A stretch of DNA of 64,000 bases from a virus (Duplodnaviria > Caudoviricetes). The DNA lies in IMG/VR virus record IMGVR_UViG_3300031994_000006, positions 64,001 through 128,000 of that record. One strand, given 5' to 3'. A program made the translations under genes and the position numbers. The notes beneath the pieces are model-generated. The model saw only the letters and a program-made list of their open reading frames with translations, ran no database searches and was not told the DNA's origin. Positions 5,653 through 52,158 of the stretch are shown here, piece after piece (the stretch's first letter is position 1; every line of letters begins with the position of its first letter).

Positions 5653-6096
5653 ATGAGACTCGACAGGATTTATACCCAGATAACCGAGGCGTTCAAGGCG
5701 GGCAACAGGGCACGCAAGAAGGAAGCTGTCCAGGATGCGGCCGTCATGCCGGACAGTCCCGTGGACGAGGATCTCCGGGATCTCGTCAACGATTTTATGT
5801 TCAGGACAAGCGTGGAGGCCTGCATAGAGACCAACGGCTGCGACAAGTCCAAGCTGACAATCAGCGGCGACAATTCACAGATCATCGTCCGGTTTATGCT
5901 CCCTGGCGAGAACAAGAAATGTTTTATCCTGATATATCCGGCCGAAAAACATGTCATACTGCACGGCGGCAAGGTGCAGGGAATCAAAAAGATTGATTTT
6001 GACAATGACGGCGATTTTACCCCCAAGGTGAACCTGATGGTCAACATGATGCACTACGTCGAAATGCTTATCGGAACATACAAAGAAGAAGTGTAA
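5653..6096 (+). CDS. EAFxAGNRARKKE-tagged protein (putative internal head protein)
   Basis: MRLDRIYTQITE-AFKAGNRARKKEAVQD; ATG at 5653 follows a late promoter box. Confidence 0.75.
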   Translation: MRLDRIYTQITEAFKAGNRARKKEAVQDAAVMPDSPVDEDLRDLVNDFMFRTSVEACIETNGCDKSKLTISGDNSQIIVRFMLPGENKKCFILIYPAEKHVILHGGKVQGIKKIDFDNDGDFTPKVNLMVNMMHYVEMLIGTYKEEV

Positions 6097-6928: not shown

Positions 6929-7651
6929 TCAAAGCCATCCCCATTGTATCATCCTGGTGACGGTCTCTTCATACGTTATTGAGCCGTTCAGGCCGAACTT
7001 GTATTCCGTATTACAGTACCCGCATCCGGGATCCTTGAACGTGTCATGCACGCACATTCCGTGCTGCTCAAGCGGTTCGATAAGGTGCTCGAATATCTCG
7101 GTCTGTTTGAGGTCGGCTATGAACGACACCATCTCCTCCCTCATCATCGGCGGGCATTCCTTGAACACGACCAGCTCGAGGTTCGAGTCGACGAAGCACA
7201 GTGCATCGACCTGACCGGCCCTGTGCTTGTTGCGTCCCTTCCTTTTCCATTCGGCGAAGTCCGTCACGGAGTCGATGCTGTCGAACGTTATTTTCCTGGT
7301 GACCCAGCTGCCGACGCACGCGCTGGTGACGGTCTTCGGTATGTTCAGCACCTCTGCGAGGTTGTCGCCCCTTATCACAAGCGTCCTGAGTCTGTCGAAT
7401 CCCATCTGCGAGAAGTCGAACGTCAGCAGATCGGCATCGTCGCCCTTCTCGTCGAACGACAGGTCAAGGGTTTCGCACTTCTTCATGTCGCTGAGCCTGA
7501 CTATGCCGGAACGCTCCATCTCATGCTTTATCTGGGGATCCGGCCATGCAATCAGGGGATCCACGGAATTCACCGTGTCCTGCGCGGATTCCTGTTTCCT
7601 TGCCCTGTTTCCGGCCCTGAAGGCCTCGTTGAAGTCGAATTTTCTCCTCAT
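6929..7651 (-). CDS. EAFxAGNRARKKE-tagged protein (putative internal head protein)
   Basis: MRRKFDFNE-AFRAGNRARKQESAQD; the following PLIAWPDPQIKHEMERSGI resembles the starts of polyprotein modules 4 and 7. Confidence 0.75.
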   Translation of the reverse strand: MRRKFDFNEAFRAGNRARKQESAQDTVNSVDPLIAWPDPQIKHEMERSGIVRLSDMKKCETLDLSFDEKGDDADLLTFDFSQMGFDRLRTLVIRGDNLAEVLNIPKTVTSACVGSWVTRKITFDSIDSVTDFAEWKRKGRNKHRAGQVDALCFVDSNLELVVFKECPPMMREEMVSFIADLKQTEIFEHLIEPLEQHGMCVHDTFKDPGCGYCNTEYKFGLNGSITYEETVTRMIQWGWL

Positions 7652-7680: not shown

Positions 7681-8130
7681 ATGTCATATTTACTTTCCGA
7701 TATATTCCGGCAGCTCTGTGAAGCCTTCAGGGCAGGCAATGCCGCCCGTAAGAAGGAATCTGCACAGGATTCCGTCGACGGAGGCCGTGTCATACCGCCG
7801 TCGGAGGTGCTGAAGCAGTATTTCGGTGATAAGATGGACGACCTGAGGACCGTCAAGATAGACATTGACGGACGGATCAGGGAATACCTGACGACATATG
7901 TGGAGGGATATACGGACGGCCGTAATATGGTCAGGATCTCGTTCATTGACGAATGGCCCCTGATTTCCGGCGATACATTCCTTCTCAAGATGTACTATGA
8001 CAACGGCGACAGGGATGATCTCCATTTCGGCGATGAAATCGACAATGCCGATATATTGCTCTGTGTGTGCGACGAGATTATGGACGCCGTCGACGGATCG
8101 GAGGATGAAACTGAAGAGGATGACGAATGA
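7681..8130 (+). CDS. EAFxAGNRARKKE-tagged acidic protein (putative internal head protein)
   Basis: MSYLLSDIFRQLCE-AFRAGNAARKKESAQD. Confidence 0.75.
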   Translation: MSYLLSDIFRQLCEAFRAGNAARKKESAQDSVDGGRVIPPSEVLKQYFGDKMDDLRTVKIDIDGRIREYLTTYVEGYTDGRNMVRISFIDEWPLISGDTFLLKMYYDNGDRDDLHFGDEIDNADILLCVCDEIMDAVDGSEDETEEDDE

Positions 8131-9604: not shown

Positions 9605-9607
9605 ATA
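9601..9607 (+). promoter_or_regulatory. late promoter-like ATAAATA upstream of the tail sheath gene
   Basis: Lies 57 nt upstream of the sheath ATG. Confidence 0.6.
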
Positions 9608-9664
9608 ATATGCAGACGGCTGAAATATGCCGTTTCAGCACGAAAAATCACTCACAAGAAAATA

Positions 9665-12600
9665 ATGGCAAAACTGGCACTCAATCTCGCACAGTTCAAG
9701 TCTGCCGGTGTGTATATCCAGGAGATAGACAACACCACCGAGATCACTGTCGAGAGCAACTCGCTTCGCCTTCTTGTAGGTTTCAATCCCAAGGGACCGT
9801 TCAACCGTCCGGTTTTCCTGTCCAATGAGAATGACCGCGTCAAGATCTTCGGCGACATCGACCAGAAGCTTGAGGCTAAGGGCAACTACTTCAACCGTAT
9901 GGCCCAGACCCTTGTCAGCGCCGGCCCGCTCTTCGCGCTCAACCTCCTGAAGGTCGACGACGCATACGACGGCGAGGACCAGGTCAACTATGCGGCGTTC
10001 TCCCTGAACGCGGGCTACCCGAACCCCGAGCTTATCTCTACCAACGGAACCATCTACGGCGAGGTCGACAAGAACCCCGTGGACGATACTGTCTACTACA
10101 ACAGGGCGAACAACATCATCCCCTATGTAGGCAACGCTCCTTACAGCGCCTTCTATGACAGGTCGAGGTTCTGGATCCCCTCTGAGGAGAACCTTACCGC
10201 CGTTGCGGCCCGCGGCGTCGGCGACGGCACCGAGACGACCGTGTTCAACAGCTCGAACTTCTTCAACCTGGCGAACGTCGGCACCGAGGAGATCTCCGTG
10301 CTCGTGTTCAAGCCCGAGGCCCTGAAGGGATACGATATCACCTGCGCGGAATGGTATGACGGCGAGGAGAACATCCCGTACGGATTCATCCGTCCGAACG
10401 ACTACATCGCCGACTACTTCATCCAGGTTGTCGTCGTCAAGGGCAACTGGGGCGACTTCAAGAAGCTCGCGACCGACACGCTCTGGGGTGACTTCTTCGA
10501 TGCCAACGGTATCAAGAAGAACAAGATCAACCAGTTCCTGTCTACCGCAGGTGTCTCCACGCTCGGTTCCTGGATCGGTTCCATCATCCCCGACTTCGAG
10601 GACAAGCTCGGCAACCCGCAGAACATCGTCGACAAGATCAACAACTCGACGACCGTCACGGGCCTGCTCGCAGCGTTCAACCGCGACGCCGCGATGACCC
10701 TCGGCTATGACTACGACTTCGAGGACACCGACGACGAGGACAACAAGGGCGGCTGGTTCCAGGACATCGACGGCGACGGCAACTTCGACCGTGGCCAGGA
10801 GTCAATCGATTCCCGTGAGGGCACCCCGTATGACGACGGCAAGCCCAAGAACGACCTGTTCCTCATCGATATGGTCGGTCACGAGTTCACGAAGGGCTAT
10901 CCTACGGACAAGTACAATACTGAGACTAAGAAGTATGAGCGCCGTTACGGTATTAACTTCCTGTCTTACAACTACGACTCCGACACTCCTGACGACCTCC
11001 TGACTCCGATGAACTTCGCCAGCTACTTCCATGAGACCGGCGCTGTTCCTCCTGAGATTCAGAACATGTTCATCATAGCCAATGAGCACGCTGCTGCGAA
11101 GCTCGGTCTCGGCGACTATGTGAAGAACTTCCCCGGCGAGGGCGAGGAATACGGACACCTCCTGATTCCCGGTATCACCAGGATCATCAAGAAGGTCGCC
11201 CTGACGCTGACCATCTCCGAGTCTGACGCCCAGAAGCTGTACGGCAACCGCGACCAGACCGTCGAGGTGACCGACGCCAAGTTCATCTACAAGGGCAAGG
11301 AGTATCTGTACAGCGGCTACGCTATCCAGAACTACCGCCTGAAGAGGTTCTATGTATGGCTGTACACGGCTGTCGAGCCCGTCGAGATCATCAGTGCCGA
11401 GGAGGCGATGATTTCGATTGATAACGACACTGAGGAGAATGTCCTTGTCACCGACCTGTCCCAGGATAGTATCATCGACTTCCAGTACGACGACTATGCG
11501 TTCCGTCTCTTCATCAACTCTGATGAGGACACCACAGGCGACAAGGCTATCGAAGGCGATCTGAACACCAACGAGGGCTTCACCGACAAGATCCAGGTCA
11601 ATGCGGCGTTCGGCATATATGTCGACGGCGAGTTCTATACTCAGGCTAAGGAGAACGGCTGGAAGGTCAAGATCTCCAAGAAGCACTATGAGAACGGTAT
11701 TCTCGTTCCCGGTGAGTTCGAGGAGGACTACTACGAGCTCGACGAAGACAGGTTTAATACCATCACCCTCAACGAGATCTACATCGACGGTACCGGTATC
11801 TACAAGGACGACGGCTCTCCCGTATCCACAGCGGATCTCCCCGCCGGATACAAGATCGGCATGACCATCAACCACGTCAAGACCGACGTCTATGTCGGCG
11901 GACAGGTGACGAAGCAGGCCGCTATCACGGATCCTATCGTCAGCGCCAACCTGAAGTTCATCCCGATGAAGGGCCTGTCGATCTCCAAGCGTCATATGCC
12001 CGGATACGACGAGCAGGGTAACCTGGACGTCGAGGCCGGCGTGAACAAGATCTACAGCCTGCTGATGGAGGACGAGGGCGTGCTCCGCGGCCTCTGTAAC
12101 CCGCAGATGATTGACTTCCGTTACATCATCGACTCGATGGGCTACGGCCTTGACAGCATGATGGGCGGCAAGGTCTACCTGTCGCAGCTGGCGCAGAAGA
12201 GGCAGTCATGTACCGCGATCCTGAACGCGCCTTCTAAGAGGCACTTCAGCATCAGCACGAACCCGTACTTCTGCGACTCGTTCACCGAGGGCGTCGAGAT
12301 CCGTCCCGCATTCGACACGAGCTATATCGCATCGGGCGGCAACACCGAGCTCTATCACTCCAAGATCTTCAGTCTGCCCGACCTGGACAACGGAGCGTCG
12401 TTCACCGGCGTATTCTGGCCCTGGCTGCAGTACACGGTCAACCGCAAGAAGATCATGGTTCCGCCCGCTGCCGACGTCGCGAACGTGTTCATTAGGAAGT
12501 TCACCGGAGGCGATCCCTACGCCATTGCGGCCAACCGCAACGGTATCCTGAGCAACCGCTACCTGACGGGCCTCGAGTATCAGGCCGACCAGCAGGATCG

Positions 12601-13027
12601 TGACTACCTCGAGCCGATGGGTATCAACACCATCATCGCCGACGGACAGGACATCATGATCTACGGCAACCAGACCGCCTACCAGCGTGTCGACAGCGAC
12701 CTGAACAAGCTGCACGTCCGTGAGAACCTGAACACCATCGAGCTGCGCTGCAAGGCCGTTCTGAAGAACTACGTGTTTGTCTACAACACGCCTGTTACCC
12801 GCGGCGAGATTGTGAAGAGACTCGACCCGATCCTCAGCGCGATGAAGACGTCCGGCGCCATCAGCTGGTACAACATCCAGTGTGACGACAAGAACAACAC
12901 CGATGAGATTATCGAGCAGGACTTTGGTATCGTGGACATCAGCGTGATCTTCGGTCACGGCATGGAGAAGATCCTCACCAGGATCACCCTCGAGCGCAAG
13001 TCCATCATGGTACGCTCTGGATATTAA
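9665..13027 (+). CDS. tail sheath protein (T4 gp18-like)
   Basis: N-terminal SAGVYIQEIDNT and GFNPKGPFNRP; C-terminal VPPAA, DRDYLEPMGIN, YGNQT, LNKLHVR, CDDKNNT. Confidence 0.93.
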   Translation: MAKLALNLAQFKSAGVYIQEIDNTTEITVESNSLRLLVGFNPKGPFNRPVFLSNENDRVKIFGDIDQKLEAKGNYFNRMAQTLVSAGPLFALNLLKVDDAYDGEDQVNYAAFSLNAGYPNPELISTNGTIYGEVDKNPVDDTVYYNRANNIIPYVGNAPYSAFYDRSRFWIPSEENLTAVAARGVGDGTETTVFNSSNFFNLANVGTEEISVLVFKPEALKGYDITCAEWYDGEENIPYGFIRPNDYIADYFIQVVVVKGNWGDFKKLATDTLWGDFFDANGIKKNKINQFLSTAGVSTLGSWIGSIIPDFEDKLGNPQNIVDKINNSTTVTGLLAAFNRDAAMTLGYDYDFEDTDDEDNKGGWFQDIDGDGNFDRGQESIDSREGTPYDDGKPKNDLFLIDMVGHEFTKGYPTDKYNTETKKYERRYGINFLSYNYDSDTPDDLLTPMNFASYFHETGAVPPEIQNMFIIANEHAAAKLGLGDYVKNFPGEGEEYGHLLIPGITRIIKKVALTLTISESDAQKLYGNRDQTVEVTDAKFIYKGKEYLYSGYAIQNYRLKRFYVWLYTAVEPVEIISAEEAMISIDNDTEENVLVTDLSQDSIIDFQYDDYAFRLFINSDEDTTGDKAIEGDLNTNEGFTDKIQVNAAFGIYVDGEFYTQAKENGWKVKISKKHYENGILVPGEFEEDYYELDEDRFNTITLNEIYIDGTGIYKDDGSPVSTADLPAGYKIGMTINHVKTDVYVGGQVTKQAAITDPIVSANLKFIPMKGLSISKRHMPGYDEQGNLDVEAGVNKIYSLLMEDEGVLRGLCNPQMIDFRYIIDSMGYGLDSMMGGKVYLSQLAQKRQSCTAILNAPSKRHFSISTNPYFCDSFTEGVEIRPAFDTSYIASGGNTELYHSKIFSLPDLDNGASFTGVFWPWLQYTVNRKKIMVPPAADVANVFIRKFTGGDPYAIAANRNGILSNRYLTGLEYQADQQDRDYLEPMGINTIIADGQDIMIYGNQTAYQRVDSDLNKLHVRENLNTIELRCKAVLKNYVFVYNTPVTRGEIVKRLDPILSAMKTSGAISWYNIQCDDKNNTDEIIEQDFGIVDISVIFGHGMEKILTRITLERKSIMVRSGY

Positions 13028-13052
13028 GCCGAAAGGTAATAAATCCCTATAT

Positions 13053-13088
13053 GACAGGGGTTCCGGTAATGACCGGGACCCCTGTTTT
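13053..13088 (+). terminator. rho-independent terminator
   Basis: acaggggttccggt-aatg-accgggacccctgt followed by a T run. Confidence 0.8.
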
Positions 13089-13121
13089 GCGTTTAATAGT
13101 AAACTTATATAATTTTCAACG

Positions 13122-13742
13122 GTGTCAACCTTAACGAATGACCAGATGAAACGGCTTGACAAATACGGCAGGGACTGCGTCCATGTGATGGCCGATAACA
13201 CCAAGCTGTTCAGGATACATTATACAACACCACAGGGATCTTTGGACCAGGCCGGAATTGACGGATGGATTATGTCAATGGACGGGTATACGATGAGCTT
13301 TGACGCGAAATCGCATATGAGGGGATACGATATAACGGATGAGAGGACCGGCGGGCTTCATTATGACTCATTCACGCTTCCCAACCATGAAATCAGTATT
13401 CCCAGGGTGAATATGTTCATGCTCGCCAACGGATATATCAATATCAATACAGATAATGACAATATATTGAGACAGCCGACCAGGCTCTATATCCTTGACA
13501 TGATGAATCTCGTATTCCTCAGGGACCTTATCGTAGATAAAAATGAGGAAGTCAAAGGCCTGCACAAGAGTCCCGTCAGTTCCGATGAGCCGCTGTGGCA
13601 GCTTGAGATGAACGAGCTTATGAAGTATAATAACGGCCGTGTGAACGACAAGACCGGTCATGTTATCCAGTTCCGTTATTATGATTTCAGGAAGAACGCT
13701 TTCGTCCTTGAACATGAGGACTGGAAACCTGATGTTATATAG
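13122..13742 (+). CDS. hypothetical protein
   Basis: 206-aa ORF, GTG start (or ATG at 13147). Confidence 0.7.
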   Translation: MSTLTNDQMKRLDKYGRDCVHVMADNTKLFRIHYTTPQGSLDQAGIDGWIMSMDGYTMSFDAKSHMRGYDITDERTGGLHYDSFTLPNHEISIPRVNMFMLANGYININTDNDNILRQPTRLYILDMMNLVFLRDLIVDKNEEVKGLHKSPVSSDEPLWQLEMNELMKYNNGRVNDKTGHVIQFRYYDFRKNAFVLEHEDWKPDVI

Positions 13743-13745
13743 GAT

Positions 13746-14543
13746 ATGAAATATACAGTAATAACATTCCTTTTCAACGGATACGATAAGCTGCGTACGC
13801 CGAGGATTGTGGATCCCAATGCGGTCTACGTATGCTTTACGGATGATCCCAAGCTTGAGTCACATGTATGGAAGTGCGTCTATCTGGAGCAGTTCGACGA
13901 CAAGACGCTTACCGGCGTGCAGAAGACCTACAGGCTCAAGTACTCGTTCTGGAAATACCTGCCGGCCGATGCCAGGTATACGGACTGGTGGGTGGTGATG
14001 GACGGCTCGCTTGAGATACAGGAGTCGCTCAGTCCCGTCATCATGCACCTTGAGAACAACGGCTATGACATGGCCCTGTCGGTCCATCCTGACCGTACGG
14101 ACTGGCTCAAGGAGTATGATGCATGGATAGAGCAGCGCGCCATGGATGCAGACAACAAGGCCAGGTTCGTGGAAGTGATGAAGGACAAGCTCGGCACCGA
14201 GGACTTCAATCAGGGACTCATCGAATGCACCATCAGGTTCTACAGGGCGAACAATCAGGAGATACTGCACATGCTCAGTAATACATATGAACTGCTCAAC
14301 TATGCGAACCAGTTCAAGGATCCTAATGACCAGTGCTATTTCACCTATATCTGCAAGCCTTATATACAGAGACTCAAGACTCTCCTGTTCTCAAGGCAGT
14401 TGTACTTTGATTCCAGGTACTTCAGGTTCTACCTTCACGGTACCGACAGGTGCATCAGATGGAACGGGGATCCGTATAAGGACATGCCGCCGCTCGCGGC
14501 GACCAAGCTCGGAGGCGAGCAAAGCAGGATAGAGGTTTTCTGA
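13746..14543 (+). CDS. DUF616-like (GT-A fold) glycosyltransferase
   Basis: NGYDKLRTP, YVCFTDD, VMDGSL, HPDR and DQCYF motifs typical of this family. Confidence 0.75.
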   Translation: MKYTVITFLFNGYDKLRTPRIVDPNAVYVCFTDDPKLESHVWKCVYLEQFDDKTLTGVQKTYRLKYSFWKYLPADARYTDWWVVMDGSLEIQESLSPVIMHLENNGYDMALSVHPDRTDWLKEYDAWIEQRAMDADNKARFVEVMKDKLGTEDFNQGLIECTIRFYRANNQEILHMLSNTYELLNYANQFKDPNDQCYFTYICKPYIQRLKTLLFSRQLYFDSRYFRFYLHGTDRCIRWNGDPYKDMPPLAATKLGGEQSRIEVF

Positions 14544-14546
14544 TAT

Positions 14547-14585
14547 AAAAAATCCGGGGCGTTCTGAACGTCCCGGATTCTTTTT
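14547..14585. terminator. bidirectional terminator
   Basis: aatccggggcgttc-t-gaacgtcccggatt flanked by A/T runs, between convergent genes. Confidence 0.8.
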
Positions 14586-14608
14586 GAGGTATTGTCATAA
14601 CCCGAAGG

Positions 14609-16549
14609 TTAGAACATGCCAGCGAAGTCCACGTGGAAGGTGATGTACTGGGTCTCAGGATAGAAACCAGTGTCGATAAGAGCGTAACGGCTCTTGATCA
14701 TTACCTTCGGAGCCATGGTGCCCTCAGAGATGATCTTCACAGACTCAGCCATGAGGTAGGGTGCGAACACAACACCGGGCTCATCCTTGCTGCCCTTACG
14801 GCCGACGAGGACACGGGTGTCATTACCAGCCATCAGAGGATCAACATAGACCGTGATACCTGCGACGTTGCCGACAGGATACAGGCTGTTGCCGTTCTGA
14901 GCGACGTTGTTCTCGATCGGAGCCCAGATATTCTGCGCGTTGCTCTGGAGAGCGGTAGCGACAGTAATATTGGTAACAGCGAACGTAGCGCCGCCGTAAC
15001 GACCACGCTGGAGGATCCAGTTGTTGGCGGTGATGAAGTTCATCTGCAGCCTCTGGAGCAGGGTAGCCTGGTTCTCGAAGATGGCCTTGCTGTTCAGGTA
15101 GATGGGCTTGTACGGCATGGAGACGTTAGTCCACTTGCGGTACGTACCGTCTGCGCCGACAGTCGTAGCGTCAGCCTGTGGGATCGCATAGGCAGGAGTC
15201 ATGCCGTTACCGAAGATACCGGCAGTCTTGCTGTCCTCAGCGAACGAGATGTTCAGGTTAGCTACAGAACCCTCAACCTCAGCGAGCTTGCAGTGGTTCT
15301 TCCAGCCGAGAGCGAACAGACGAGAGAGGATGTGACGGTTGATCGTCGAGCTGAGCTCGTTGACACCGGCGTTCTCAATCATCTTCAGCACATCGATACC
15401 CCACTGCTTCTGGAGGTCAGTTACCTGCTCCTGAGTAACAGCGACGGATACCATGATGGTACCTACGGTCACGTTCTTCGTGAACACCTGGAGGCTGAGC
15501 TGACGAGCGTAGCTCATCTCACCTGTACCACGAGACATGGGCTCGTAGAGAACCGTTCCGTCCTGATACGTGCCGTACCAAGGATCCATGTCGTTGACAC
15601 CGGATCCAGTGAAGCCCTGGATCTGATCCTCAAGCATAGAAACCAGACGGGGAGTAGTAATCGTAGCGCCAGCCAGGCTGCCGGTCAGGGCAACAGGACC
15701 AGCGGCGAACTCCTGAGCGAGGGTCTTGGCGCCCTTGACGATCTTCAGGATGGGGTCGCCATCGAGACGGCTCCAGCCGACGAACTCGAGCGTCAGGCCA
15801 TCAGCCTCGTTGAGGACGGTCTCACCGGGAACCAGACCCGCAGCGCGTGCGGCGGCCTTCAGGGCACCTACAGACTTGGCAGAGCCGATAGAGTCGAAGG
15901 AAGCCTTGAACATGTGAGGCAGACCGTAGAGGTCGTTGGGCTTGTTAGCACCGTTGGCGTCCAGATCGTGGAAGTGGTTGACGTTCTGGGTAGCGTCGTC
16001 GTAACCCGGGGTAGAACCGTAGGGCTGCTTCGTTCCGCTGTAGACGTAGTCCATGTAGGGGATTACGCCGGTCGGTCCCTGCATAGGAACGGTGTTGACC
16101 AGGTCGAAGCCGATGGTCTTGGCGGCGACCTTCAGTGCCAGGGGCAGGAGGGCGGGCCACTTGTCACCGGAACCCATCTGGGTGCCGTCAGCCTGATCAG
16201 CGGCGGTCAGGCCGGGAGTGCCTGCGGGAACGGCGTCACCGATGCCGAGGGTGTTGTACAGGGTCTGGTAGGGAGCATACACGCCGCCGACGGTACCGTT
16301 GATACCGGAAGCGTTGTTGAAGTATGCACCGCCGGGGACCTGAGCCTCATTCAGTGAACCGAACGCGCCGTAGCGGGCTGCTACGTTGGCGTTGATGCGG
16401 GCGTTCTCGTTGAGAGCCTGCACGGTGTTCATGGCAATCTGGGCCATGAGGGCCTTCTTGGCGGGATCCTTGACACCGGTAGTGCGCTCAATCATCGCGC
16501 CCCAGCTCTCGGTCAGCGCCTTACGGCTGTTCTTAAGATTACGTGCCAT
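14609..16549 (-). CDS. major capsid protein (T4 gp23-like)
   Basis: DLVNTVPMQGPTG, EQVTDLQKQWGID, NELSSTINRHIL, GVVFAPY, PKVMIKSRYAL; N-terminal LTE/LNE processing-like sites. Confidence 0.93.
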   Translation of the reverse strand: MARNLKNSRKALTESWGAMIERTTGVKDPAKKALMAQIAMNTVQALNENARINANVAARYGAFGSLNEAQVPGGAYFNNASGINGTVGGVYAPYQTLYNTLGIGDAVPAGTPGLTAADQADGTQMGSGDKWPALLPLALKVAAKTIGFDLVNTVPMQGPTGVIPYMDYVYSGTKQPYGSTPGYDDATQNVNHFHDLDANGANKPNDLYGLPHMFKASFDSIGSAKSVGALKAAARAAGLVPGETVLNEADGLTLEFVGWSRLDGDPILKIVKGAKTLAQEFAAGPVALTGSLAGATITTPRLVSMLEDQIQGFTGSGVNDMDPWYGTYQDGTVLYEPMSRGTGEMSYARQLSLQVFTKNVTVGTIMVSVAVTQEQVTDLQKQWGIDVLKMIENAGVNELSSTINRHILSRLFALGWKNHCKLAEVEGSVANLNISFAEDSKTAGIFGNGMTPAYAIPQADATTVGADGTYRKWTNVSMPYKPIYLNSKAIFENQATLLQRLQMNFITANNWILQRGRYGGATFAVTNITVATALQSNAQNIWAPIENNVAQNGNSLYPVGNVAGITVYVDPLMAGNDTRVLVGRKGSKDEPGVVFAPYLMAESVKIISEGTMAPKVMIKSRYALIDTGFYPETQYITFHVDFAGMF

Positions 16550-16693
16550 TGTTTTATATTGGCTAATTTTTTTCGTTTCGTCCTTGCGGAGTTCCTGCGT
16601 CCTGCCGGATTAGGTTTTGTTTTTTCGTCCCGGCGTCGCCGATGTCCTTTTCCTTTTGGAGACGGCACAGTACCTTCCGTGTCGGAATCATAT

Positions 16694-16700
16694 TATTTAT
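16694..16700 (-). promoter_or_regulatory. late promoter-like ATAAATA for the capsid gene
   Basis: TAATAAATA on the minus strand, ~145 nt upstream of the capsid ATG. Confidence 0.6.
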
Positions 16701-16732
16701 TACATGAAAATGCGGCATTTATTGAAAAACGC

Positions 16733-16840
16733 CTATTTGTGGTTTTTGCGGAGCCTTGCCCTGATCTGACAGATCTTCATTACGTCTTCATGAGAGAGAC
16801 TGCTCTTGAGCTCGGCAAGGTCCTTTTTCGTGAATTCCAT
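16733..16840 (-). CDS. small peptide (35 aa, MEFTKKDLAELK...)
   Basis: ATG to TAG ORF in the gap between the capsid and polyprotein genes. Confidence 0.35.
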   Translation of the reverse strand: MEFTKKDLAELKSSLSHEDVMKICQIRARLRKNHK

Positions 16841-16907
16841 ACTATTGGGCGTTGTTTCTCTGTATATATCACGGCTGAATAGATAAGCTAAGCTATATTA
16901 TAGGTAT

Positions 16908-19900
16908 ATGGGAAAAATCGATTTCGATAAGATGAACGAGGCCTTCAAGGCCGGCAATAGGGCGAGGAAGAAGGAGGCCGTACAGGATACGGTCGAATCG
17001 GTCGACAGCATGCAGGCACAGATTAAACTGTTCAAGAAGCAGACCGGTGTAGAACTCGAGATCAGAGACGGACGTCCATATTCTGATAGAGACCTGGATC
17101 TGGAAGGCTGTACCGGACTGACAGGCCTGCCGGTTGGACTGGAGGTTAACGGGTATCTGTACTTGGACGGCTGCACCGGGCTGACAGGCCTGCCTAAAGG
17201 CCTGGAGGTTAACCGGTATCTGTCACTTGAAGGCTGTACCGGACTGACAGGCCTGCCCGACGGGTTAAAAGTCAGAGGAAGCCTGTGGCTGAAAGACTGC
17301 ACCGGACTGACAGGCCTGCCTGACGGGTTGAAAGTCAGAGGAGATCTGGTTCTGACAGGCTGTACCGGACTGACAGTCCTGCCTGCAGGCCTGGAAGTTG
17401 AAAGACTGCTGAATCTGGAAGGCTGCACCGGACTGACAGGCCTGCCGACTGACCTGGTTGTCCGGGGTGATTATATTGTGCACAAGGGCGTGCTGACATC
17501 GTTCTTCAGGAAACTTGGGATACCGGTTGACGACGACGGAAATACAGATGCGGAAGACTGGCGTAGGTGGCAAAAAGCGCACGGATATCTTACAGAGGCG
17601 TTCAGGGCCGGCAACAGGGCCAGGAAGAAGGAATCCTTGCAGAATGATACGGATGCCGTATCCAGATGGCGCATACCGAAGAAGCTCGAGACCATCGACG
17701 ACTGGGAGGCCGCGTTTCTGCTGAACGCCGAGTCGGTCGGTATTACGGCCACATTAAGACAGTCGGATTCCCCGAGCAGTACGACGCGTATCTATAACCT
17801 GTATGTCCGATCAACGGAAAACAATTCCGTCACTTTCTCTGTCGGCATCACGAAGACTGATTTCTATTCGGACAATTCCCCGTTCGGCATAATAATGCGT
17901 GTAATCCTCAAGTTGGGCGCGGCCATCGGTAATGTATCGATGCACCTGGTACCTGTCACGGATGCTGCGAGGAATACGTCAGGGAGGAAAATATTCACGG
18001 ATCTGTCCGCTGCCATGGATTCCGTATGGGAGATAATCAACTATCTCAGGAACAGCAGACATTTAGGACAGGTTCTGAAGAATCCGCTCATACTCGAGCT
18101 TGACTCATCCGACGTCACGATGATCATCGTTGATGAATACCTCAGGTCCGAGCCGGGATGTCCGCTTATCTGGAACCAGAGGGATGAATATCAGGATTTC
18201 CTGACAGACTATGATTCAGAGCTAAGGCGTGCGACCGCCGTCGGACCGTGGATCAACTGGCACGGAGACACCGAGGTGCTGGCCGAGGCCTTCAGGGCAG
18301 GCAACAGGGCCAGGAAGAAGGAGTCGATATCCAGGACGTCGAATATCGTCAGCACCAGGGTACCGTCAATCACAGAGCTCGGCGACATGCTCCTTGATCT
18401 CGGATTCCTGGTCAGGAGCGGTAAGAGGGACTATGCCGAGGAGCGTCAGGAGAAGGCCCCTGAGGAAATCGACAGCATCCTGTTCAGCAAATGGTATACG
18501 CCGTCGGGCAAGGTGCCTGAAAGCGGTCCTATCAAGGAGTCCATGATACTGATGCGCGGCGGATACGGCTTATTGAATAACAAGGAGTCCGGACGGAAAA
18601 TCCCCTATATCAGCGCGGAGATTCATGTCGATATAATGCTGGACGAGGAGACCGTCGGCAAATACAGGCTGAGCTCGCTGTCAAGCAACTGGAGCTCCGT
18701 ACTCAACCTGACGGCATTCAACAAGGTCGACGAGGAGTTCATGCCAAGATTCGCCGTTCTCATGAAACTGTGGAGCGACAGCGACAGGATACTCAAGGGC
18801 CTGTATGACATGACAAAGGACAACCTTCTCCTCTTGAGGGTCGATCAGTACATACAGAAGGCGTATATCCACAGGCTGCTGTGCAGGCTCATGCCGGAAT
18901 TCGAGTCATGGCTATACTCGGAAGGTTTCGGTATCGGCAAGGAGATAGATCCTGACTCATGGCAGTGGCAGGCATCGGGCTGGATCAAGATGCCGGAGAT
19001 ACCGGAGGCGCCGCAGACGCCTGTCAACGAGGCTTTCAGGGCCGGTAACCGCGCACGTAAGAAAGAGACCGTCCGGGACGCTGTACCGGATAATGTGGAT
19101 CCTCCTATCAGGTTCGAGGATCCCAATGTCGAGAAGATATGTCACGGGCACGGCGTCTATACCATTGGCGACGCGGCCGGGATCGAGACGATACAGGGAT
19201 GGTTCGAGATTGACAGCGGCGCGGGTATCGATAATCCGGAAATCGTGAAGTTCAATGAGCTCAGGTACTTTACCGGACTTACGACCATTCCCGCCAATGC
19301 GTTCCTCGAGCAGGAGAAGCTTGAGGAGATTATGATACCCGATAGCGTCACGGTAATCGGTCAGTGCGCGTTTGACTCGTGCAGGAATCTGTCGAAGCTC
19401 GTCCTGCCCGACAGGAACAGCCTGGAGCTCGGTAATGACTGTCTGCAGTCGTGCGACGGACTGGACGAGGTCGTCGTGCCGTCCGGATGGTCCAGATGGG
19501 ATTGCATCCAGAATATGAAGGAGGCGTATGACAATGAACTTATCTGGTACCAGGAGAAAATCGATGACAACCGCATACCGGAGGAGTCAGCCTTCGAGCT
19601 GCTCGATGCGAGACTTGATACGTATTTCACCAACCGTCAGGATACGCTTGACTGCAGATTCTCCGACCTGCTTGACTGGTGGACCGAGGATGACTGTTAT
19701 GATGACGGCCAGGACAATGACGGCGAGGAAATGTCTGAGGCGTTCAGGTCCGGCAACCGCGCCCGCAAGAAGGAGTCCGTCCAGGATACCGTCCAGTCGG
19801 ACGACGCACTTGACGACCGCAACAGGTGCGCCGAGATGATGAAGACCATGCTGACGTCGCCGGCATGCCCGGCCGTAAGGATCATAGGCGATCGGCCCGC

Positions 19901-22900
19901 GGTCGTCGAGAACGCGCCGGCGATAGACCCGGCCGACATCAAGATAAGCGAGCACCTCGGCAATAACCAGGACTATACGCTCGTCGTCCTGAAATGGGAG
20001 GGTGTCGACCAGACCGATCCCGCGCAGAACTTGACATACGTCACGGAGATTTCGTTTTCGGAGGCGACCGACGGATCGGGCCTGCTCATATCGGGCGGAT
20101 GTTTTAATGACGATGATTCGGCAGACTTCTCGCCGCTTCCCGACATGTGTATCAGGGCCGATGCGGAGAATGACGGCCGGCCGAAGCTGTGGGAGCTGTG
20201 CTATGTCGAGGACTGGGAAACCGTGGATCCGGACGGCATGACGTATTCGAAGGTGTCCGTGAACGCGATGGCGGCGGTCGCCGCCGCCGTCAGGCAGATT
20301 AAGGAGCAGGACCGCAGGAAGGATCCGTCGTCGGCCGGCAAGTACCCGGTCGGCGAGGCGTTCAAGGCCGGCAACAGGGCGCGTAAGAAGGAGGCCGTCT
20401 CCGATACGGTACAGGATACCGATACGTTCATAGGCGACGGTATGCCGGCTGACAAGATTATCCCGAATCTATTCCTGAGCGCCGTCAGTACGACACAGGC
20501 GCTGCTCAGGATGCTGGGCAACGTCAATCCGCCGTTCAAGCCTGAGTTCCCAAGCTATATGAAGTGGTTCATTGATATCATAATCTCCATGTATATCAAG
20601 ACCTCGATTTCCTGGCAGCGCAGGATTTCGATCGCGAACGTCAAGGGCAGCCCTGACAGGAACAAGGGACAGGAATTCGATATCATCCTTGAGATGGGAA
20701 TCAGGAAATACCATTTTCTCATAACCCCGGGCAACAAGGAGAACCAGTATGCGGTATGGTTTAAGATGACCGTGCATCTGTTCGACATAGACTTCAATCC
20801 TGATTATCCGGAGCAGTCCGCCGTCCATATAGCGCCGGCCATGAAGTATTTCATTGCCGGATTCCTTGAGGCATACAGGACGTTCTTTGAGGAAAAAGGT
20901 GTGCTCGAGGCGTTCAGGGCAGGCAACCGGGCCAGGAAGAAGGAATCCGTACAGGATACTGTCAATGCTGTCGATGTACCGGTCAGATTCGAGGATCCGG
21001 TCGTCCGCATGTACATGGAGGAGCATGGGATAACGACTTTGTCCAAGGTCGCGACCGCGATATTGCCGATATGGGATGCCGATGAACAGGAAGACTGGTT
21101 CAGGCCTGAGAGGTTCAATGAGTTCAAGCTGTTCACGTCGATAACTCATATCAAGGAATATATGTTCAACGGACAGGAGAATCTTGAGGAAATAGAGCTC
21201 CCGCCTACAGTACAGGCCATCGGATATGGGGCATTCAGATCATGCCTGAGTCTCGAGAACCTTGACATTCCCAATTCATGCAGGGAACTCGGGGAAGACT
21301 GCCTTGCCGGATGCGACAGCCTTGAATATGTTGGTTTCCCGGATTCATGGACCTATGAATACGCGTTCGAGCAGTTCGCCAGGGCATTCAAAGATGATAT
21401 TGAAACCCTGCCCGACATACTTACCTGGAATGATGTCAACTCATGGGATGAGATGCCGTTCCCTGATGCGACGATTACGAACAATTACTATACATTCCAT
21501 CTGTCGGATCTGTTTAAGAAGTTCAGCGACCAGGATACCCTTGAGATGCATGGACTGCTTAATGAGGCCTTCAGGGCCGGCAACAGGGCCCGCAAGAAGG
21601 AGTCCGCCGCCGATACCGCAGAGGGTCCGTTAAAGCAGATTCCGTTTACTGAGAAGGAAATCAGGGACGCCTTCAGGGCGATAATCGACAGTGAGGACAA
21701 TCCCATCAGGAAGAACGCGCAGCCCGGCTATGAGGACAAGATAAAGCCGGCCGCCGTGCTGGCACAGGCCGTCAGTTATTCATGTGAGGCCTTCAGGAAA
21801 CTGTTCAGCCGCGTTATGGCAGGGCCGTGGGGCAAGCTCAAGATTACATGGGAGGAATGGCGGGACGGACGCCGCTGGGGCGGATGGACGGAACTCGGTA
21901 TAGTCAAGGTCATCATCAGCCGGGACGACTTCAAGGACGGCACGCCCGTCAAGGTGTGGAAGTTTTCGCTCAGGATTACCAACGACTTCGAGAACGACTG
22001 GCAGGACAGGTTCGGCGTATTCGCCGGATTCGACGCCGCTGAGAATCTGAACGTCGAAATATACAAGCCTGTTATAGACATATACATCAGGCACAACCCG
22101 TATAAGATATATGTTCGTCAGGCATTCGTCGACGGGCTTAACAGATTCTTCTCATATGAGATCTGGGAGGCTTTCAAAGCCGGTAACAAGGCCAGGAAGA
22201 AGGAGTCCGTCATCGATACGGTCGAGTCGGTCAATGATATACAGACACAGATTGAATTGTTCAGGAAACAGACTTTCGGCATAGAGCTTGAGATCAGGGA
22301 CGGACATCCGTACTTTAACGGAGACCTGGATCTGCGAGGCTGCACCGGACTGACAAGCCTGCCTACAGGCCTGGAGGTTGAAGGAGACCTGGATCTGGCA
22401 GGCTGCACCGGACTGACAGGACTGCCTGCAGGCCTGAAGGTTGAAGGAGACTTGTCTCTGGAAGGTTGTACCGGACTGACTGGCCTGCCGTTTGACTTGG
22501 TTGTCCGGGGTGCTTATATTTTTCATGATGGTATGCTGATACCGTTCTTCAGGAAACTTGGGATACCGGTTGACAAAGAAGGAGACACAGATACAGAAGA
22601 CTGGTGTACGTGGCAAGAAGCTCATGGATATCTTAAAGAGGCCTTTAGGGCCGGCAACCGTGCAAGGAAGAAGGAGTCCGCCGTCGATACGGTCGATTCC
22701 GTCAATGTGAAGATTACGAAAGAGGAGGTTGTCGGATGGTTCAGGGATGCGATAGATTCTGACCGGAATACCATACCGAAGAATGATCCGCATGCCTGGC
22801 CTGCAATGTGCCTTGTCACTGACGCCTTGTTTACAAGGCTTGCCATTGATAAGCTTGTTGATAAAATTAAGGAAAGTGACAGCGGTGTTGTTATAGAGCG

Positions 22901-23219
22901 TGTATCATACGGACAGTTCCGTAATCCTAAAGGGCCTAATCAGTTCGGCAGTAAGACCTTGGGTTTTGTCGATGTAACGGCAGGCTTTAAGGATCGCAGT
23001 TTTTCATGGAGCTGGGAATTTGTAATTACTATTGAAGATTATAAAGGCAAGGAAGATTATTGCTATAAGCTTTATGTCAATTCTCGTGTAAATTCTGAAA
23101 GCCTTTTACCGGGTCCTAAAAATGAACCGTTGGTGACCGTCTATGCAAGACGTACTCCGTATAAGATAGAAGTCAATGAGAAATTCATCGACGGTATTAA
23201 CAGTATATTGAAACAATGA
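16908..23219 (+). CDS. 2103-aa modular polyprotein: 10 modules each opened by EAF[RK][AS]GN[RK]ARKKE; includes LRR and BspA-like LRR modules
   Basis: Motif Glu codons at 16938, 17595, 18285, 19029, 19737, 20355, 20907, 21564, 22167 and 22638. Confidence 0.9.
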   Translation: MGKIDFDKMNEAFKAGNRARKKEAVQDTVESVDSMQAQIKLFKKQTGVELEIRDGRPYSDRDLDLEGCTGLTGLPVGLEVNGYLYLDGCTGLTGLPKGLEVNRYLSLEGCTGLTGLPDGLKVRGSLWLKDCTGLTGLPDGLKVRGDLVLTGCTGLTVLPAGLEVERLLNLEGCTGLTGLPTDLVVRGDYIVHKGVLTSFFRKLGIPVDDDGNTDAEDWRRWQKAHGYLTEAFRAGNRARKKESLQNDTDAVSRWRIPKKLETIDDWEAAFLLNAESVGITATLRQSDSPSSTTRIYNLYVRSTENNSVTFSVGITKTDFYSDNSPFGIIMRVILKLGAAIGNVSMHLVPVTDAARNTSGRKIFTDLSAAMDSVWEIINYLRNSRHLGQVLKNPLILELDSSDVTMIIVDEYLRSEPGCPLIWNQRDEYQDFLTDYDSELRRATAVGPWINWHGDTEVLAEAFRAGNRARKKESISRTSNIVSTRVPSITELGDMLLDLGFLVRSGKRDYAEERQEKAPEEIDSILFSKWYTPSGKVPESGPIKESMILMRGGYGLLNNKESGRKIPYISAEIHVDIMLDEETVGKYRLSSLSSNWSSVLNLTAFNKVDEEFMPRFAVLMKLWSDSDRILKGLYDMTKDNLLLLRVDQYIQKAYIHRLLCRLMPEFESWLYSEGFGIGKEIDPDSWQWQASGWIKMPEIPEAPQTPVNEAFRAGNRARKKETVRDAVPDNVDPPIRFEDPNVEKICHGHGVYTIGDAAGIETIQGWFEIDSGAGIDNPEIVKFNELRYFTGLTTIPANAFLEQEKLEEIMIPDSVTVIGQCAFDSCRNLSKLVLPDRNSLELGNDCLQSCDGLDEVVVPSGWSRWDCIQNMKEAYDNELIWYQEKIDDNRIPEESAFELLDARLDTYFTNRQDTLDCRFSDLLDWWTEDDCYDDGQDNDGEEMSEAFRSGNRARKKESVQDTVQSDDALDDRNRCAEMMKTMLTSPACPAVRIIGDRPAVVENAPAIDPADIKISEHLGNNQDYTLVVLKWEGVDQTDPAQNLTYVTEISFSEATDGSGLLISGGCFNDDDSADFSPLPDMCIRADAENDGRPKLWELCYVEDWETVDPDGMTYSKVSVNAMAAVAAAVRQIKEQDRRKDPSSAGKYPVGEAFKAGNRARKKEAVSDTVQDTDTFIGDGMPADKIIPNLFLSAVSTTQALLRMLGNVNPPFKPEFPSYMKWFIDIIISMYIKTSISWQRRISIANVKGSPDRNKGQEFDIILEMGIRKYHFLITPGNKENQYAVWFKMTVHLFDIDFNPDYPEQSAVHIAPAMKYFIAGFLEAYRTFFEEKGVLEAFRAGNRARKKESVQDTVNAVDVPVRFEDPVVRMYMEEHGITTLSKVATAILPIWDADEQEDWFRPERFNEFKLFTSITHIKEYMFNGQENLEEIELPPTVQAIGYGAFRSCLSLENLDIPNSCRELGEDCLAGCDSLEYVGFPDSWTYEYAFEQFARAFKDDIETLPDILTWNDVNSWDEMPFPDATITNNYYTFHLSDLFKKFSDQDTLEMHGLLNEAFRAGNRARKKESAADTAEGPLKQIPFTEKEIRDAFRAIIDSEDNPIRKNAQPGYEDKIKPAAVLAQAVSYSCEAFRKLFSRVMAGPWGKLKITWEEWRDGRRWGGWTELGIVKVIISRDDFKDGTPVKVWKFSLRITNDFENDWQDRFGVFAGFDAAENLNVEIYKPVIDIYIRHNPYKIYVRQAFVDGLNRFFSYEIWEAFKAGNKARKKESVIDTVESVNDIQTQIELFRKQTFGIELEIRDGHPYFNGDLDLRGCTGLTSLPTGLEVEGDLDLAGCTGLTGLPAGLKVEGDLSLEGCTGLTGLPFDLVVRGAYIFHDGMLIPFFRKLGIPVDKEGDTDTEDWCTWQEAHGYLKEAFRAGNRARKKESAVDTVDSVNVKITKEEVVGWFRDAIDSDRNTIPKNDPHAWPAMCLVTDALFTRLAIDKLVDKIKESDSGVVIERVSYGQFRNPKGPNQFGSKTLGFVDVTAGFKDRSFSWSWEFVITIEDYKGKEDYCYKLYVNSRVNSESLLPGPKNEPLVTVYARRTPYKIEVNEKFIDGINSILKQ
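17094..17471 (+). repeat. 6 x 63-bp coding tandem repeat (21-aa LRR, LxLxGCTGLTGLPxGLxVxGx)
   Basis: Recurrent tg(c/t)accggactgacaggcctgcc at a 63-nt period. Confidence 0.9.
22326..22514 (+). repeat. 3 x 63-bp coding tandem repeat (same 21-aa LRR)
   Basis: Paralogous to 17094-17471. Confidence 0.9.
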
Positions 23220-23443
23220 AGATAATCAGGGCATATATAAGGTTCATCGAGACGCTGCTGACCGACAGGAGGACCGAGCAGGAGATCCGCCGGTATGATA
23301 TCTGCAGGGCCTGCCCGCACCGGAAGTGGGTGTTCTGCGGCCTGTGCGGGTGTGTCATACACGCCAAGACTATGGCCGACTATCCCCTGGGATCCGACGG
23401 CCTGAGCATAGGCGGGTGTCCGGACGAGCCCCCGAGATGGTGA
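23216..23443 (+). CDS. small Cys-rich protein (DUF6171-like)
   Basis: RYDICRACP...CGLCGC...AKT...CP...W pattern; ATGA-coupled to the polyprotein gene. Confidence 0.65.
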   Translation: MKIIRAYIRFIETLLTDRRTEQEIRRYDICRACPHRKWVFCGLCGCVIHAKTMADYPLGSDGLSIGGCPDEPPRW

Positions 23444-23447
23444 CCGG

Positions 23448-23463
23448 ATAAATAACCGGAAAA
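23448..23463 (+). promoter_or_regulatory. late promoter-like ATAAATAACCGGAAA
   Basis: Same 15-mer as at 26197; intergenic, upstream of a gene start. Confidence 0.6.
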
Positions 23464-23480
23464 TTCAGATACTGTATTAT

Positions 23481-24215
23481 ATGAAGATAAGTCTCAAGAA
23501 GGAACATTGGATGTTCATCCTGGTGGTGGTGCTCGGACTCAGCCTGTTCGGCAACGTCAGGCAGTGCATCCGCCTGCATGAGAAGCCCGTCGTGATTGAC
23601 GACTCGCTCCGTTACTGGAAGGACAAGGCCGGCAGGGAATACGCAGAGAAGGCCGCGGCTATCATGACCGTCAGTCAGCTCAGGCATGAGAACGACTCCC
23701 TGTATGCGGAATACAAGGCGCTCAAGGATCGCGGTCCTATCATCATTACCAAGACCGAGACGCTCATCGAGCTCCGCGACACGGCCATCAATACGGTGGT
23801 CGAGAAGTTCCCCGGCGGCTATGACCTGAAATGGGGCATGCGCCAGGACTTCAGCGGCAACAACTGGGTGGCGCTCGGCGGCACGACCAGGGCCGACTCG
23901 CTCATGAAGGACGTCACGACCAGGCTCGACTCGCTCCAGATAGGCGCCGACATGGTGCTCAGCGTGACCGACGGCAACAAGGACTGCGTCCGTATCGACG
24001 TCAGGTCCAACAACCCGCTGCTCAAGGTCACCGACATAGAGGGCGTGATGCTCGATCCGAATAAGTCCAAGTCAATCACCTCGAGGATCAAGAAGAAGAA
24101 GTTCGGTATCGGACTGCATGTCGGACCGGGACTCCAGGTCAATCCGAAAGGCGAGGTCAACCTCGGCATAGAGGCCGGCGTCGGACTTGATTTCAACCTG
24201 ATTTCCCTGTTCTAA
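23481..24215 (+). CDS. membrane-anchored protein, putative spanin-like lysis protein
   Basis: N-terminal transmembrane segment, coiled coil, C-terminal KKKKFGIGLHVGPG...GVGLDFNL beta-hairpin. Confidence 0.55.
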   Translation: MKISLKKEHWMFILVVVLGLSLFGNVRQCIRLHEKPVVIDDSLRYWKDKAGREYAEKAAAIMTVSQLRHENDSLYAEYKALKDRGPIIITKTETLIELRDTAINTVVEKFPGGYDLKWGMRQDFSGNNWVALGGTTRADSLMKDVTTRLDSLQIGADMVLSVTDGNKDCVRIDVRSNNPLLKVTDIEGVMLDPNKSKSITSRIKKKKFGIGLHVGPGLQVNPKGEVNLGIEAGVGLDFNLISLF

Positions 24216-35931: not shown

Positions 35932-36477
35932 TCATCTCCCGACAGGGAACATCATGTTCCAGCACCTGTCAAGCACAGCCGTCAGTGTGCGGACGCCCTT
36001 CTCTGATCCGAGGTCGGCAGCGGACATCTTGATATACGATTCAGACTCATTCCGTCCGTCGCCGTCGAAGTAGAGCCAACCGCCCTTCTCCTCATCATCC
36101 CGTTCATAACAGAAGCCGAGCCTGACCGTGTCGTCGTCCATGCGGTCAATCTCCATGGCGACGGAACCTCCCAGTCTTGTATTCCTGTCGCGGCCGGTCA
36201 GGTAGATGTTCTCCTCCGACTCAAACCTGCCGTCTGTCTCCAGATCGGACCAGACCGCCTCGGGCAGGTAGAAGTCGTCCGCCTTGTACGGAATACTCTT
36301 GTCCGTATTGCGCTTCTTCAAGGCCCGCTTGACGCCGTTGCACCAGGAGTATACGGCGGCCTTCAGATCCATGGGGACGGATTCGACCGCGTCGGCGGCG
36401 GATTCCTTCCTGCGGGCCTTGTTGCCGGCCTTGAAGGCCTCCCGGATATCCGGGGCTATTTCATCGAGCCTTTTCAT
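35932..36477 (-). CDS. EAFxAGNRARKKE-tagged protein (putative internal head protein)
   Basis: MKRLDEIAPDIRE-AFKAGNKARRKESAAD. Confidence 0.75.
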   Translation of the reverse strand: MKRLDEIAPDIREAFKAGNKARRKESAADAVESVPMDLKAAVYSWCNGVKRALKKRNTDKSIPYKADDFYLPEAVWSDLETDGRFESEENIYLTGRDRNTRLGGSVAMEIDRMDDDTVRLGFCYERDDEEKGGWLYFDGDGRNESESYIKMSAADLGSEKGVRTLTAVLDRCWNMMFPVGR

Positions 36478-38812: not shown

Positions 38813-38835
38813 ATTACTTTGTTTTATATTTAACT

Positions 38836-38900
38836 TTACTGCAAAGATAGGCATTTCCGACGAAAATAAAAAATCCTGCAGCGTCTTTCTGCAGGATTTT
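38836..38900 (-). promoter_or_regulatory. terminator hairpin fused to a Bacteroidota-type promoter (copy 2)
   Basis: aaaatcctgcag...ctgcaggatttt hairpin; minus strand TATCTTTGCA matches the TAnnTTTG -7 box at 38842-38849. Confidence 0.7.
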
Positions 38901-38921: not shown

Positions 38922-39623
38922 CTATTTCTGTCTGCCGAGGCTATCCGGCCAGATCATAAACGTGTCCGTCAATATGAAATACGTATCACATCCGTATTCG
39001 TCCAGGAACTTCTTGAACATGCCCGCAAGCTCCCGGGGATTGCGGTACAGGTCCCTGGCCTTGTAGATGTATGCCGAGACCGTGGGCCAGTACATATAGT
39101 TTTCCGATGGATCCGTCTCGTTCCACCTGTCATATACGTCGTCCTCACCGTACTTCTCTTCGAACTCCTCGAACGTCATGAACCTTCCGGTATTGTCATC
39201 GTACCGGTAATTCTCCGACGTCTTGTATATGTCGTCCATCTCATAGGCGAAAGTCTTGCCGAAGAACCAGTTGCTGAAGCTTCCATTCTGTATATAGTTG
39301 TCGGGAATTAGGACAGCCATGAACTTATCGCCGTCGATGGTGTTCACCTCGTCGAGTCCGCTCCTCTCCATGAGATCCTGTATGTCCTCGGGTACGCCGG
39401 TGCACCTTCTCTTATTAGAGTCCTCATATATCTCCAGGGTGCCATTCTTATTTCCGTTGTAGTACGTGACGAGCGCCACGTGGAACACCATGTTCGCGTA
39501 GTCGGTCACATCGAAGGCCATATCCTGGACGGCATCCTGTATGGACTCCTTCTTACGAGCCCTGTTGCCGGCATTAAACGCCTCCCACAGAGGCCTGTAT
39601 ATATCCGAAAGTCTAACATTCAT
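38922..39623 (-). CDS. EAFxAGNRARKKE-tagged protein (putative internal head protein)
   Basis: MNVRLSDIYRPLWE-AFNAGNRARKKESIQD. Confidence 0.75.
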   Translation of the reverse strand: MNVRLSDIYRPLWEAFNAGNRARKKESIQDAVQDMAFDVTDYANMVFHVALVTYYNGNKNGTLEIYEDSNKRRCTGVPEDIQDLMERSGLDEVNTIDGDKFMAVLIPDNYIQNGSFSNWFFGKTFAYEMDDIYKTSENYRYDDNTGRFMTFEEFEEKYGEDDVYDRWNETDPSENYMYWPTVSAYIYKARDLYRNPRELAGMFKKFLDEYGCDTYFILTDTFMIWPDSLGRQK

Positions 39624-52131: not shown

Positions 52132-52158
52132 AAAGGTTGCAGAAATGCAACCTTTTTA
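52129..52158. terminator. bidirectional terminator
   Basis: taaaaaggttgca-gaaa-tgcaacctttttta. Confidence 0.85.

Follow-up and report, generated by a model that had tools for sequence, protein, structure and literature searches.

We analyzed a 64,000-nt window (positions 64,001 to 128,000) of the Caudoviricetes record IMGVR_UViG_3300031994_000006, in which a 2103-aa polyprotein is divided into ten modules by a recurrent peptide tag that begins with Glu-Ala-Phe. The tag recurs across the phage genome, is under selection as a peptide, delimits modules that are exchanged as wholes between orthologous polyproteins, shares its grammar with different tags in sister phages, and is copied at the N-termini of a protein family of rumen Prevotellaceae. 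As a whole, these observations are probably best explained if the polyprotein is a precursor of virion cargo whose products each retain the tag as an address. Positions below are those of the window unless a record or contig is named.

The ten-module gene and its tag

The source is a linear IMG/VR record of 207,794 bp with 54% GC, here called G000, which was sampled from sheep gut and has relatives in goat gut. Its capsid protein is 57% identical to that of Lak-sized phages (L005, 553 kb) and 73% identical to that of L011 (record G003). Lak phages infect Prevotella (PMC6784885), and we infer the host of the G000 phage from this fact and from the places where bacterial copies of the tag occur. 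All ten tag Glu codons and the open reading frame (ORF) boundaries agree exactly with the original prediction, and re-measurement of the tag spacings returned the same 219, 230, 248, 236, 206, 184, 219, 201, 157 and 193 aa. A Logan unitig from the source run spans 17606-21591 with zero differences, and additional unitigs span most of 21563-23500; thus, the tag array is not an assembly artifact. In an RNA run (X10), the gene is present as short contig pieces, which do not demonstrate transcription. The gene and its predicted parts are as follows.

16908..23219, plus strand: ten-module polyprotein gene (2103 aa); its syntenic ortholog, P0001, has nine modules
16908..16940, plus strand: 11-aa leader ending in M-N-E, a predicted propeptide of the F-D-F-D leader class
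16941..17597, plus strand: predicted product 1, tag and leucine-rich repeat (LRR) module of the largest module family, with variable repeat number
17598..18287, plus strand: predicted product 2, tag and domain without recognizable family
18288..19031, plus strand: predicted product 3, tag and domain without recognizable family
19032..19739, plus strand: predicted product 4, tag and BspA-type LRR_5 module, of a family also found behind another tag in G003
19740..20357, plus strand: predicted product 5, tag and domain without recognizable family
20358..20909, plus strand: predicted product 6, tag and domain without recognizable family, present twice in P0001
20910..21566, plus strand: predicted product 7, tag and BspA-type LRR_5 module, paralog of 4 (33%)
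21567..22169, plus strand: predicted product 8, tag and alpha/beta domain, paralog of 10 (26%), absent from P0001
22170..22640, plus strand: predicted product 9, tag and short LRR module, absent from P0001
22641..23219, plus strand: predicted product 10, tag and alpha/beta domain without clear fold match

Leucine-rich repeats make up four of the ten modules (a single large LRR family accounts for 1 and 9, whereas 4 and 7 are of the BspA-type LRR_5), and the other six have no recognizable family. Over the polyproteins, Pfam matched LRR only, plus a weak GNAT match in one untagged first module (G000:31749-34967, L025:11749-14967 in contig coordinates; this gene also has a degenerate fifth tag near its end). 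The non-LRR modules could not be assigned a function with PHROGs, Atlas or Foldseek. In a structure model of modules 9-10 (pTM 0.48), the domains are independent and the tags form low-confidence helices with a disordered linker.

The modules are exchanged as units. The 335 modules collected fall into 64 clusters, and orthologous polyproteins differ by whole modules: in P0001, modules 8 and 9 are missing and module 6 is duplicated, and both DNA breakpoints of these differences fall within tags. Module 8 is also the first module of another polyprotein (P0164), and the LRR family of modules 4 and 7 is found in G003 behind a second tag type.

The conserved stretch of the tag is approximately 25 aa long and extends past the core as S-[VA]-Q-D-[TA]-V-E-S-V-D. 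G000 holds 41 tags in 16 ORFs, namely five long polyproteins, one two-module gene, and small genes with a single copy 9-14 residues from the start. The claim that selection acts on the peptide was borne out by these 41 copies, all of which differ in DNA. Among them, synonymous differences affect 39.7% of codon pairs and non-synonymous ones 9.3%, third codon positions differ at 0.42 compared with 0.07-0.11 at the other positions, and one Arg is encoded variously by AGG, CGT, CGC and AGA. Ala follows the tag Glu in every copy (41/41). The residue two positions before Glu, which had been described as hydrophobic in each copy of the polyprotein, is L, V, M or I in 36 of the 41 copies genome-wide (background 26%), hence commonly but not always, and its neighbors are variable.

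Besides the ten-module gene, the window holds five tagged genes:

5653..6096, plus strand: stand-alone tagged gene, tag Glu at 5686
6929..7651, minus strand: stand-alone tagged gene, tag Glu at 7627
7681..8130, plus strand: stand-alone tagged gene, tag Glu at 7720
35932..36477, minus strand: stand-alone tagged gene, tag Glu at 36441
38922..39623, minus strand: stand-alone tagged gene, tag Glu at 39584

Another 49 tags are carried by contigs of one rumen metagenome. The longest carrier of proteins from both tag sets is a contig of 443,820 bp, which points to one genome of about 444 kb with approximately 90 tags. Nine contigs (L031, L032, L034, L035, L041, L045, L046, L050 and L051) are probably the missing half of the G000 genome; they encode polymerase-, DnaK-, DnaJ- and clamp-loader-like genes without a match in G000.

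A search of 1.84 billion representative proteins with the tag profile gave 44 matches, of which 43 are genuine tags, so that recurrence of the tag is not a matter of chance. The genuine matches come from the G000 phage clade and four bacterial proteins only; the match to P0044 was judged spurious. A search with the tag pattern was negative for the remaining IMG/VR records and for GTDB, in the latter case because the pattern is too strict, as contig L056 carries a tag variant.

Predicted cut sites, leaders and the tags of sister phages

The prohead protease gp21 of phage T4 cleaves after Glu in I/L-x-E (PMC12991175), degrades the scaffold and itself (PMC12991175, PMC9958956), and processes head cargo (PMC9958956). 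Relevant structural and protease genes of G000 include:

14609..16549, minus strand: gp23-type major capsid protein gene (PF07068 match), divergent from the polyprotein gene, with N-terminal L-x-E-[S/A] sites
9665..13027, plus strand: tail sheath-like protein gene (weak PF17482 match), in a T4-type myovirus context
G000:29386-31686: gene for a gp21-type protease with a long, fused scaffold-like tail, immediately following a tagged polyprotein gene

Both the position of the polyprotein gene beside a gp23-type gene and the L-x-E sites in the capsid N-terminus had been noted before and are confirmed here; hydrophobic-x-Glu sites occur in this N-terminus in all 23 relatives. The protease domain (PF03420, G000:31264-31608) was identified with an E-value of 2e-14. 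When tags are masked, the protease-scaffold gene is the ORF richest in hydrophobic-x-E-[A/S] (15 sites vs 2.2 expected, p 1e-8), and the capsid protein has four sites vs 0.9 expected. Tagged ORFs show no excess of this motif outside the tags, and cut sites are not depleted inside modules. All phage copies of the G000-type tag are preceded by Glu (Asp in one). Judging from these sequences, the head protease very likely cuts after each tag Glu, which would yield ten products of 17-28.5 kDa. The proposed division into ten products with a common N-terminus is supported by the motif-rich protease-scaffold and by the replacement of Glu by Met in stand-alone copies from bacteria and sister phages; the description of the products as effectors finds no such backing, four modules being LRRs and six having no recognizable family.

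Proteins of the G000 clade have 48 distinct leaders of 3-20 aa that end in hydrophobic-x-Glu and form two conserved classes. An untagged Eco57I-type methyltransferase (36896-38854, minus strand), whose likely start is in the second half of its first 35 aa, has a leader of the tagged-gene class ending in L-M-E and is a candidate packed methyltransferase. Two small charged proteins near the protease gene (G000:20802-21671 and 28723-29364) are rich in hydrophobic-x-E-[A/S] and are candidate head-core proteins.

Searching the genome and related phages with motif profiles, as had been suggested, revealed that the tag is genome-wide in G000 and that sister phages have different tags. A profile of the second tag type (L-G-L), built solely from bacterial N-termini, found 21 copies in polyproteins of G003 (best E-value 8.5e-12) and none in 20 other relatives. 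This outcome had been predicted beforehand from the idea that host peptides copy the tags of other phages. In G003, hydrophobic-x-E lies 2-5 residues upstream of 16/16 internal tags and of 0/4 first tags. In the wider clade (G003 and 20 further proteins, on contigs of up to 438 kb), the site precedes 87 of 91 internal tags, and 11 of 15 first tags start from Met without a cut site. Since the spacing varies, the cut site is an element separate from the tag. A blind search after hydrophobic-x-Glu identified further tags in G004 and Lak, including Met-start versions. G004 has polyproteins of three modules, six genes in which Met-Ala is the immediate start, and tandem small genes that begin with its tag and resemble an internal-protein locus (G004:10316-14582, L094). 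Lak tags are single-copy only; Lak record G001 (L066-L093) has two N-terminal motif families after hydrophobic-x-Glu, each single-copy. One is an acidic S-L-F-D-D type (15 ORFs), and the other is an amphipathic helix flanked by two sites (13 ORFs). The order of cut site, address and cargo, in which the cut site seems dispensable where translation itself puts the address first, is well supported by these comparisons.

Among the other genes of the window, the slot between the sheath and gp23 genes (13122-14543, plus strand) holds two small genes, and in a close relative the same slot (L110:2981-7540, minus strand) encodes a 1519-aa metallophosphoesterase/PAP2 protein. The ORF at 39714-50294 (plus strand, 3526 aa) has a weak LRR match only, and the ORFs at 52156-57183 and 59964-63779 have no Pfam match.

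Prevotellaceae proteins that carry the tag

The four bacterial profile matches start with Met-Ala-Phe and have stop codons just upstream. Met thus occupies the position of Glu, and the N-terminus equals the one that the predicted cut would create. Met-start copies of the G000-type tag are bacterial in 35/35 cases. The proteins belong to a family of about 100 members in rumen Prevotellaceae; approximately one third carry the G000 tag, always directly after Met, and the others start with different peptides. According to the profile search of representatives, no bacterial protein outside this family carries the tag, and the family is absent from the viral contigs and phage ORFs examined.

The host protein is predicted to be a zincin-like gluzincin metalloprotease. 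HEXXH and a downstream Glu are conserved (H240, E241, H244, E263 and E264 are invariant in 92 sequences), and the structure model (pLDDT 81.8) is zincin-like with the first 23 residues disordered. Structure comparison with VIA matched 5zum (Z 10.0, rmsd 4.4, 214 aligned) in a list dominated by zincins; Foldseek had no match for the model at E 0.001. The tagged host gene has no Pfam, NCBIfam or PADLOC match; among named Atlas clusters, Peptidase_M78 comes closest (0.87), which is no more than a lead.

The gene sits on mobile islands, either a low-GC island beside comM or a DUF932/RecA/ligase element, and its neighbors match IetA-like AAA ATPase models only (PADLOC, Pfam, NCBIfam). In contig L056, the island spans 9379-18628. 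It is the hypervariable gene of both elements, with 37-52% identity vs 77-100% for the neighbors. On a quick tree of the protein core, the tag type switches at least 21 times. Between host N-termini and phage tags, 9-20 of 20 residues agree, compared with 7-9 for controls; the best host peptides match single phage tags at 18-20 of 20, and host copies keep the peptide in AT-rich codons. Profiles of the Lak and G004 tags matched no host protein. For the S-F-T host peptide type, profile and pattern searches were negative in 18 relatives, and IMG/VR gave 33 single matches, about chance level; a look-alike start in G003 and a stretch in Lak are leads only.

The gene that follows the tagged host gene (L056:11224-12318; L052:11189-12352) is exchangeable and by eye resembles an HNH-type nuclease, which no library confirmed. 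Several of the host genes are truncated or split, or have a transposase behind them (L053:160-651; L054:180-1303; L055:827-1135), as expected for a costly or fast-turning gene. A literature search, which covered few subscription journals, found no description of the tags or of their host copies.

Explanations and known systems

We propose that the polyprotein would be built into the prohead as a precursor of virion cargo, and that the gp21-type protease would cut after each hydrophobic-x-Glu, freeing ten small proteins that start with Ala-Phe. The basic, helical tag retained on each product would be an address for phage head machinery, acting in loading, retention or ordered ejection; every internal tag would be conserved because the address is read on each product separately. 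The near-identical tag DNA may double as a crossover point for gain and loss of modules, and sister phages would use different tags in the same grammar. Sequence comparison gives good support to cutting and to an address that is lineage-specific and retained. By analogy with T4, head packaging of the tagged products is likely, and the chance that they are also ejected is a little better than even.

Rumen Prevotellaceae would copy and swap the cut tags on their zincin-like protein, most likely to reach the tag-reading machinery of the phage, and an anti-phage role of this protein is reasonably probable. T4 packs and delivers foreign proteins given its targeting peptide, and virions can be destroyed by a nuclease packed in them (PMC9026906); a host protease that displays the address is therefore a feasible weapon. 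A Trojan-horse defence, with an arms race over tags, is a tentative suggestion: the metalloprotease would travel to progeny heads or enter them, and would either damage these heads or reach the next cell. The host protein may enter heads, jam or cut the tag reader, or only sense it.

Several points weigh against this proposal. One tag would be enough to pack the precursor, so that ten are needed only if a further step is assumed to follow cutting. Conserved leaders also head untagged proteins, and hence packing may depend on the leader. None of the modules has a known effector function. Approximately 48 of 106 host proteins stay below threshold with every tag profile, and no phage partner was found for two types of host peptide.

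It is unlikely, although suggested by the two conserved classes of leaders, their presence on untagged proteins such as the Eco57I-type methyltransferase, and the redundancy of internal tags for packing, that the leader packs the precursor in the manner of the T4 targeting sequence and that the tag acts after delivery by binding a host factor or by protecting or localizing the product. The host protein would then be a sensor or a competitor at the same binding site and would not enter heads. Many first tags in G003, G004, Lak and the wider clade start at Met without a cleavable leader, and a host-encoded receptor would account neither for the different tags of related phages, whose hosts are probably related as well, nor for the way in which host proteins track each tag type. 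No other bacterial protein carries the tag. We regard it as very improbable that the polyprotein stays uncut and binds a partner with avidity through its repeated helices, for example as an LRR decoration or adhesion protein on the virion surface. LRR_5 domains are common in surface proteins, and the tag is predicted to be helical, with the hydrophobic residue and Phe four apart on one face; however, in the second tag type hydrophobic-x-E lies at a variable distance (2 to 5) from the core, and tags that start at Met are precisely those that lack the site. In addition, the predicted P1' residue is the one at which bacterial copies begin, and the modeled domains are independent.

Breaks of module gains and losses inside tags would also be expected of a DNA cassette site, either for recombination or as a mobile-element end, in which the peptide is incidental. 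The divergence of all 41 copies at third positions and the preservation of the peptide in AT-rich host codons have largely refuted this as the main role, which is extremely improbable; it remains as a side effect. On the bacterial side alone, the gene may not be defensive: its N-termini may be phage DNA captured by a selfish element that travels in phage heads, or the protein may be an IrrE/ImmA-like switch by which infection induces the element. Its location on the comM-adjacent island and the DUF932/RecA/ligase element, the lack of a PADLOC match and the Peptidase_M78 lead are in line with this, but hypervariability and repeated tag swaps form an arms-race pattern, and the accompanying IetA-like AAA ATPases also argue against it. 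Such a non-defensive gene is doubtful and leaves the phage-side reading of addressed virion cargo untouched.

The choice of proteins for the T4-type head core and later ejection has been called mysterious (PMC9958956). With some 90 natural tag copies per genome, their variants and the host imitations, the reader of the signal becomes directly findable. The tags list the probable injected proteome of Lak-related phages, and the host copies link uncultured rumen megaphages to hosts by sequence alone. If true, a bacterial copy of a phage virion address would be a kind of defence for which no description was found in the literature. The host protein has HEXXH, a downstream Glu and a zincin-like fold in common with gluzincins and with IrrE/ImmA/CapP-type switches; unlike them, it has at its N-terminus a disordered copy of a phage tag that can be swapped. 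In CBASS activation by prohead proteases (PMC12991175), a bacterial immune protein likewise imitates a feature of gp21 substrates, but CBASS offers a cut site, whereas the Prevotellaceae protein has none and copies the new N-terminus of the product.

Polyvalent proteins (PMC5512222) are also long mosaic chains, thought to be packed, cut and injected, with rapid domain shuffling, and the 335 modules in 64 clusters agree with many shuffled domains per chain. Here, however, no MPTase or other enzyme domain is recognized, although remote enzymes may be present; domains are delimited by a repeated tag and head-protease site, and it is the bacteria that encode the zincin. The giant phages SPN3US and phiKZ likewise have ejection proteins (PMC5694885) that are head cargo cut after Glu in a three-residue motif, but there propeptides are removed from single proteins, and no retained common tag or modular precursor was described. 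The closest parallels are with T4 internal proteins IPI-III, Alt and the capsid-targeting sequence (PMC9958956, PMC9026906). Shared features are gp21-type protease, gp23 capsid, hydrophobic-x-Glu in head proteins, a leader of about 10 aa ending in hydrophobic-x-Glu on cargo, and many unrelated small cargo domains; in T4, foreign proteins given the signal are packed and delivered. The conserved signal of T4 is the removed propeptide, whereas here the invariant residues lie after Glu and approximately 22 conserved residues would be retained after the cut; the short cleavable leader is missing from many first tags in sister clades. Unlike the T4 signal, the tags are repeated within polyproteins, reach some 90 copies in a genome and vary from one sister phage to another. 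Thus, the phage side is a variant of the T4 internal-protein type, and its host counterpart may be a new kind of defence.

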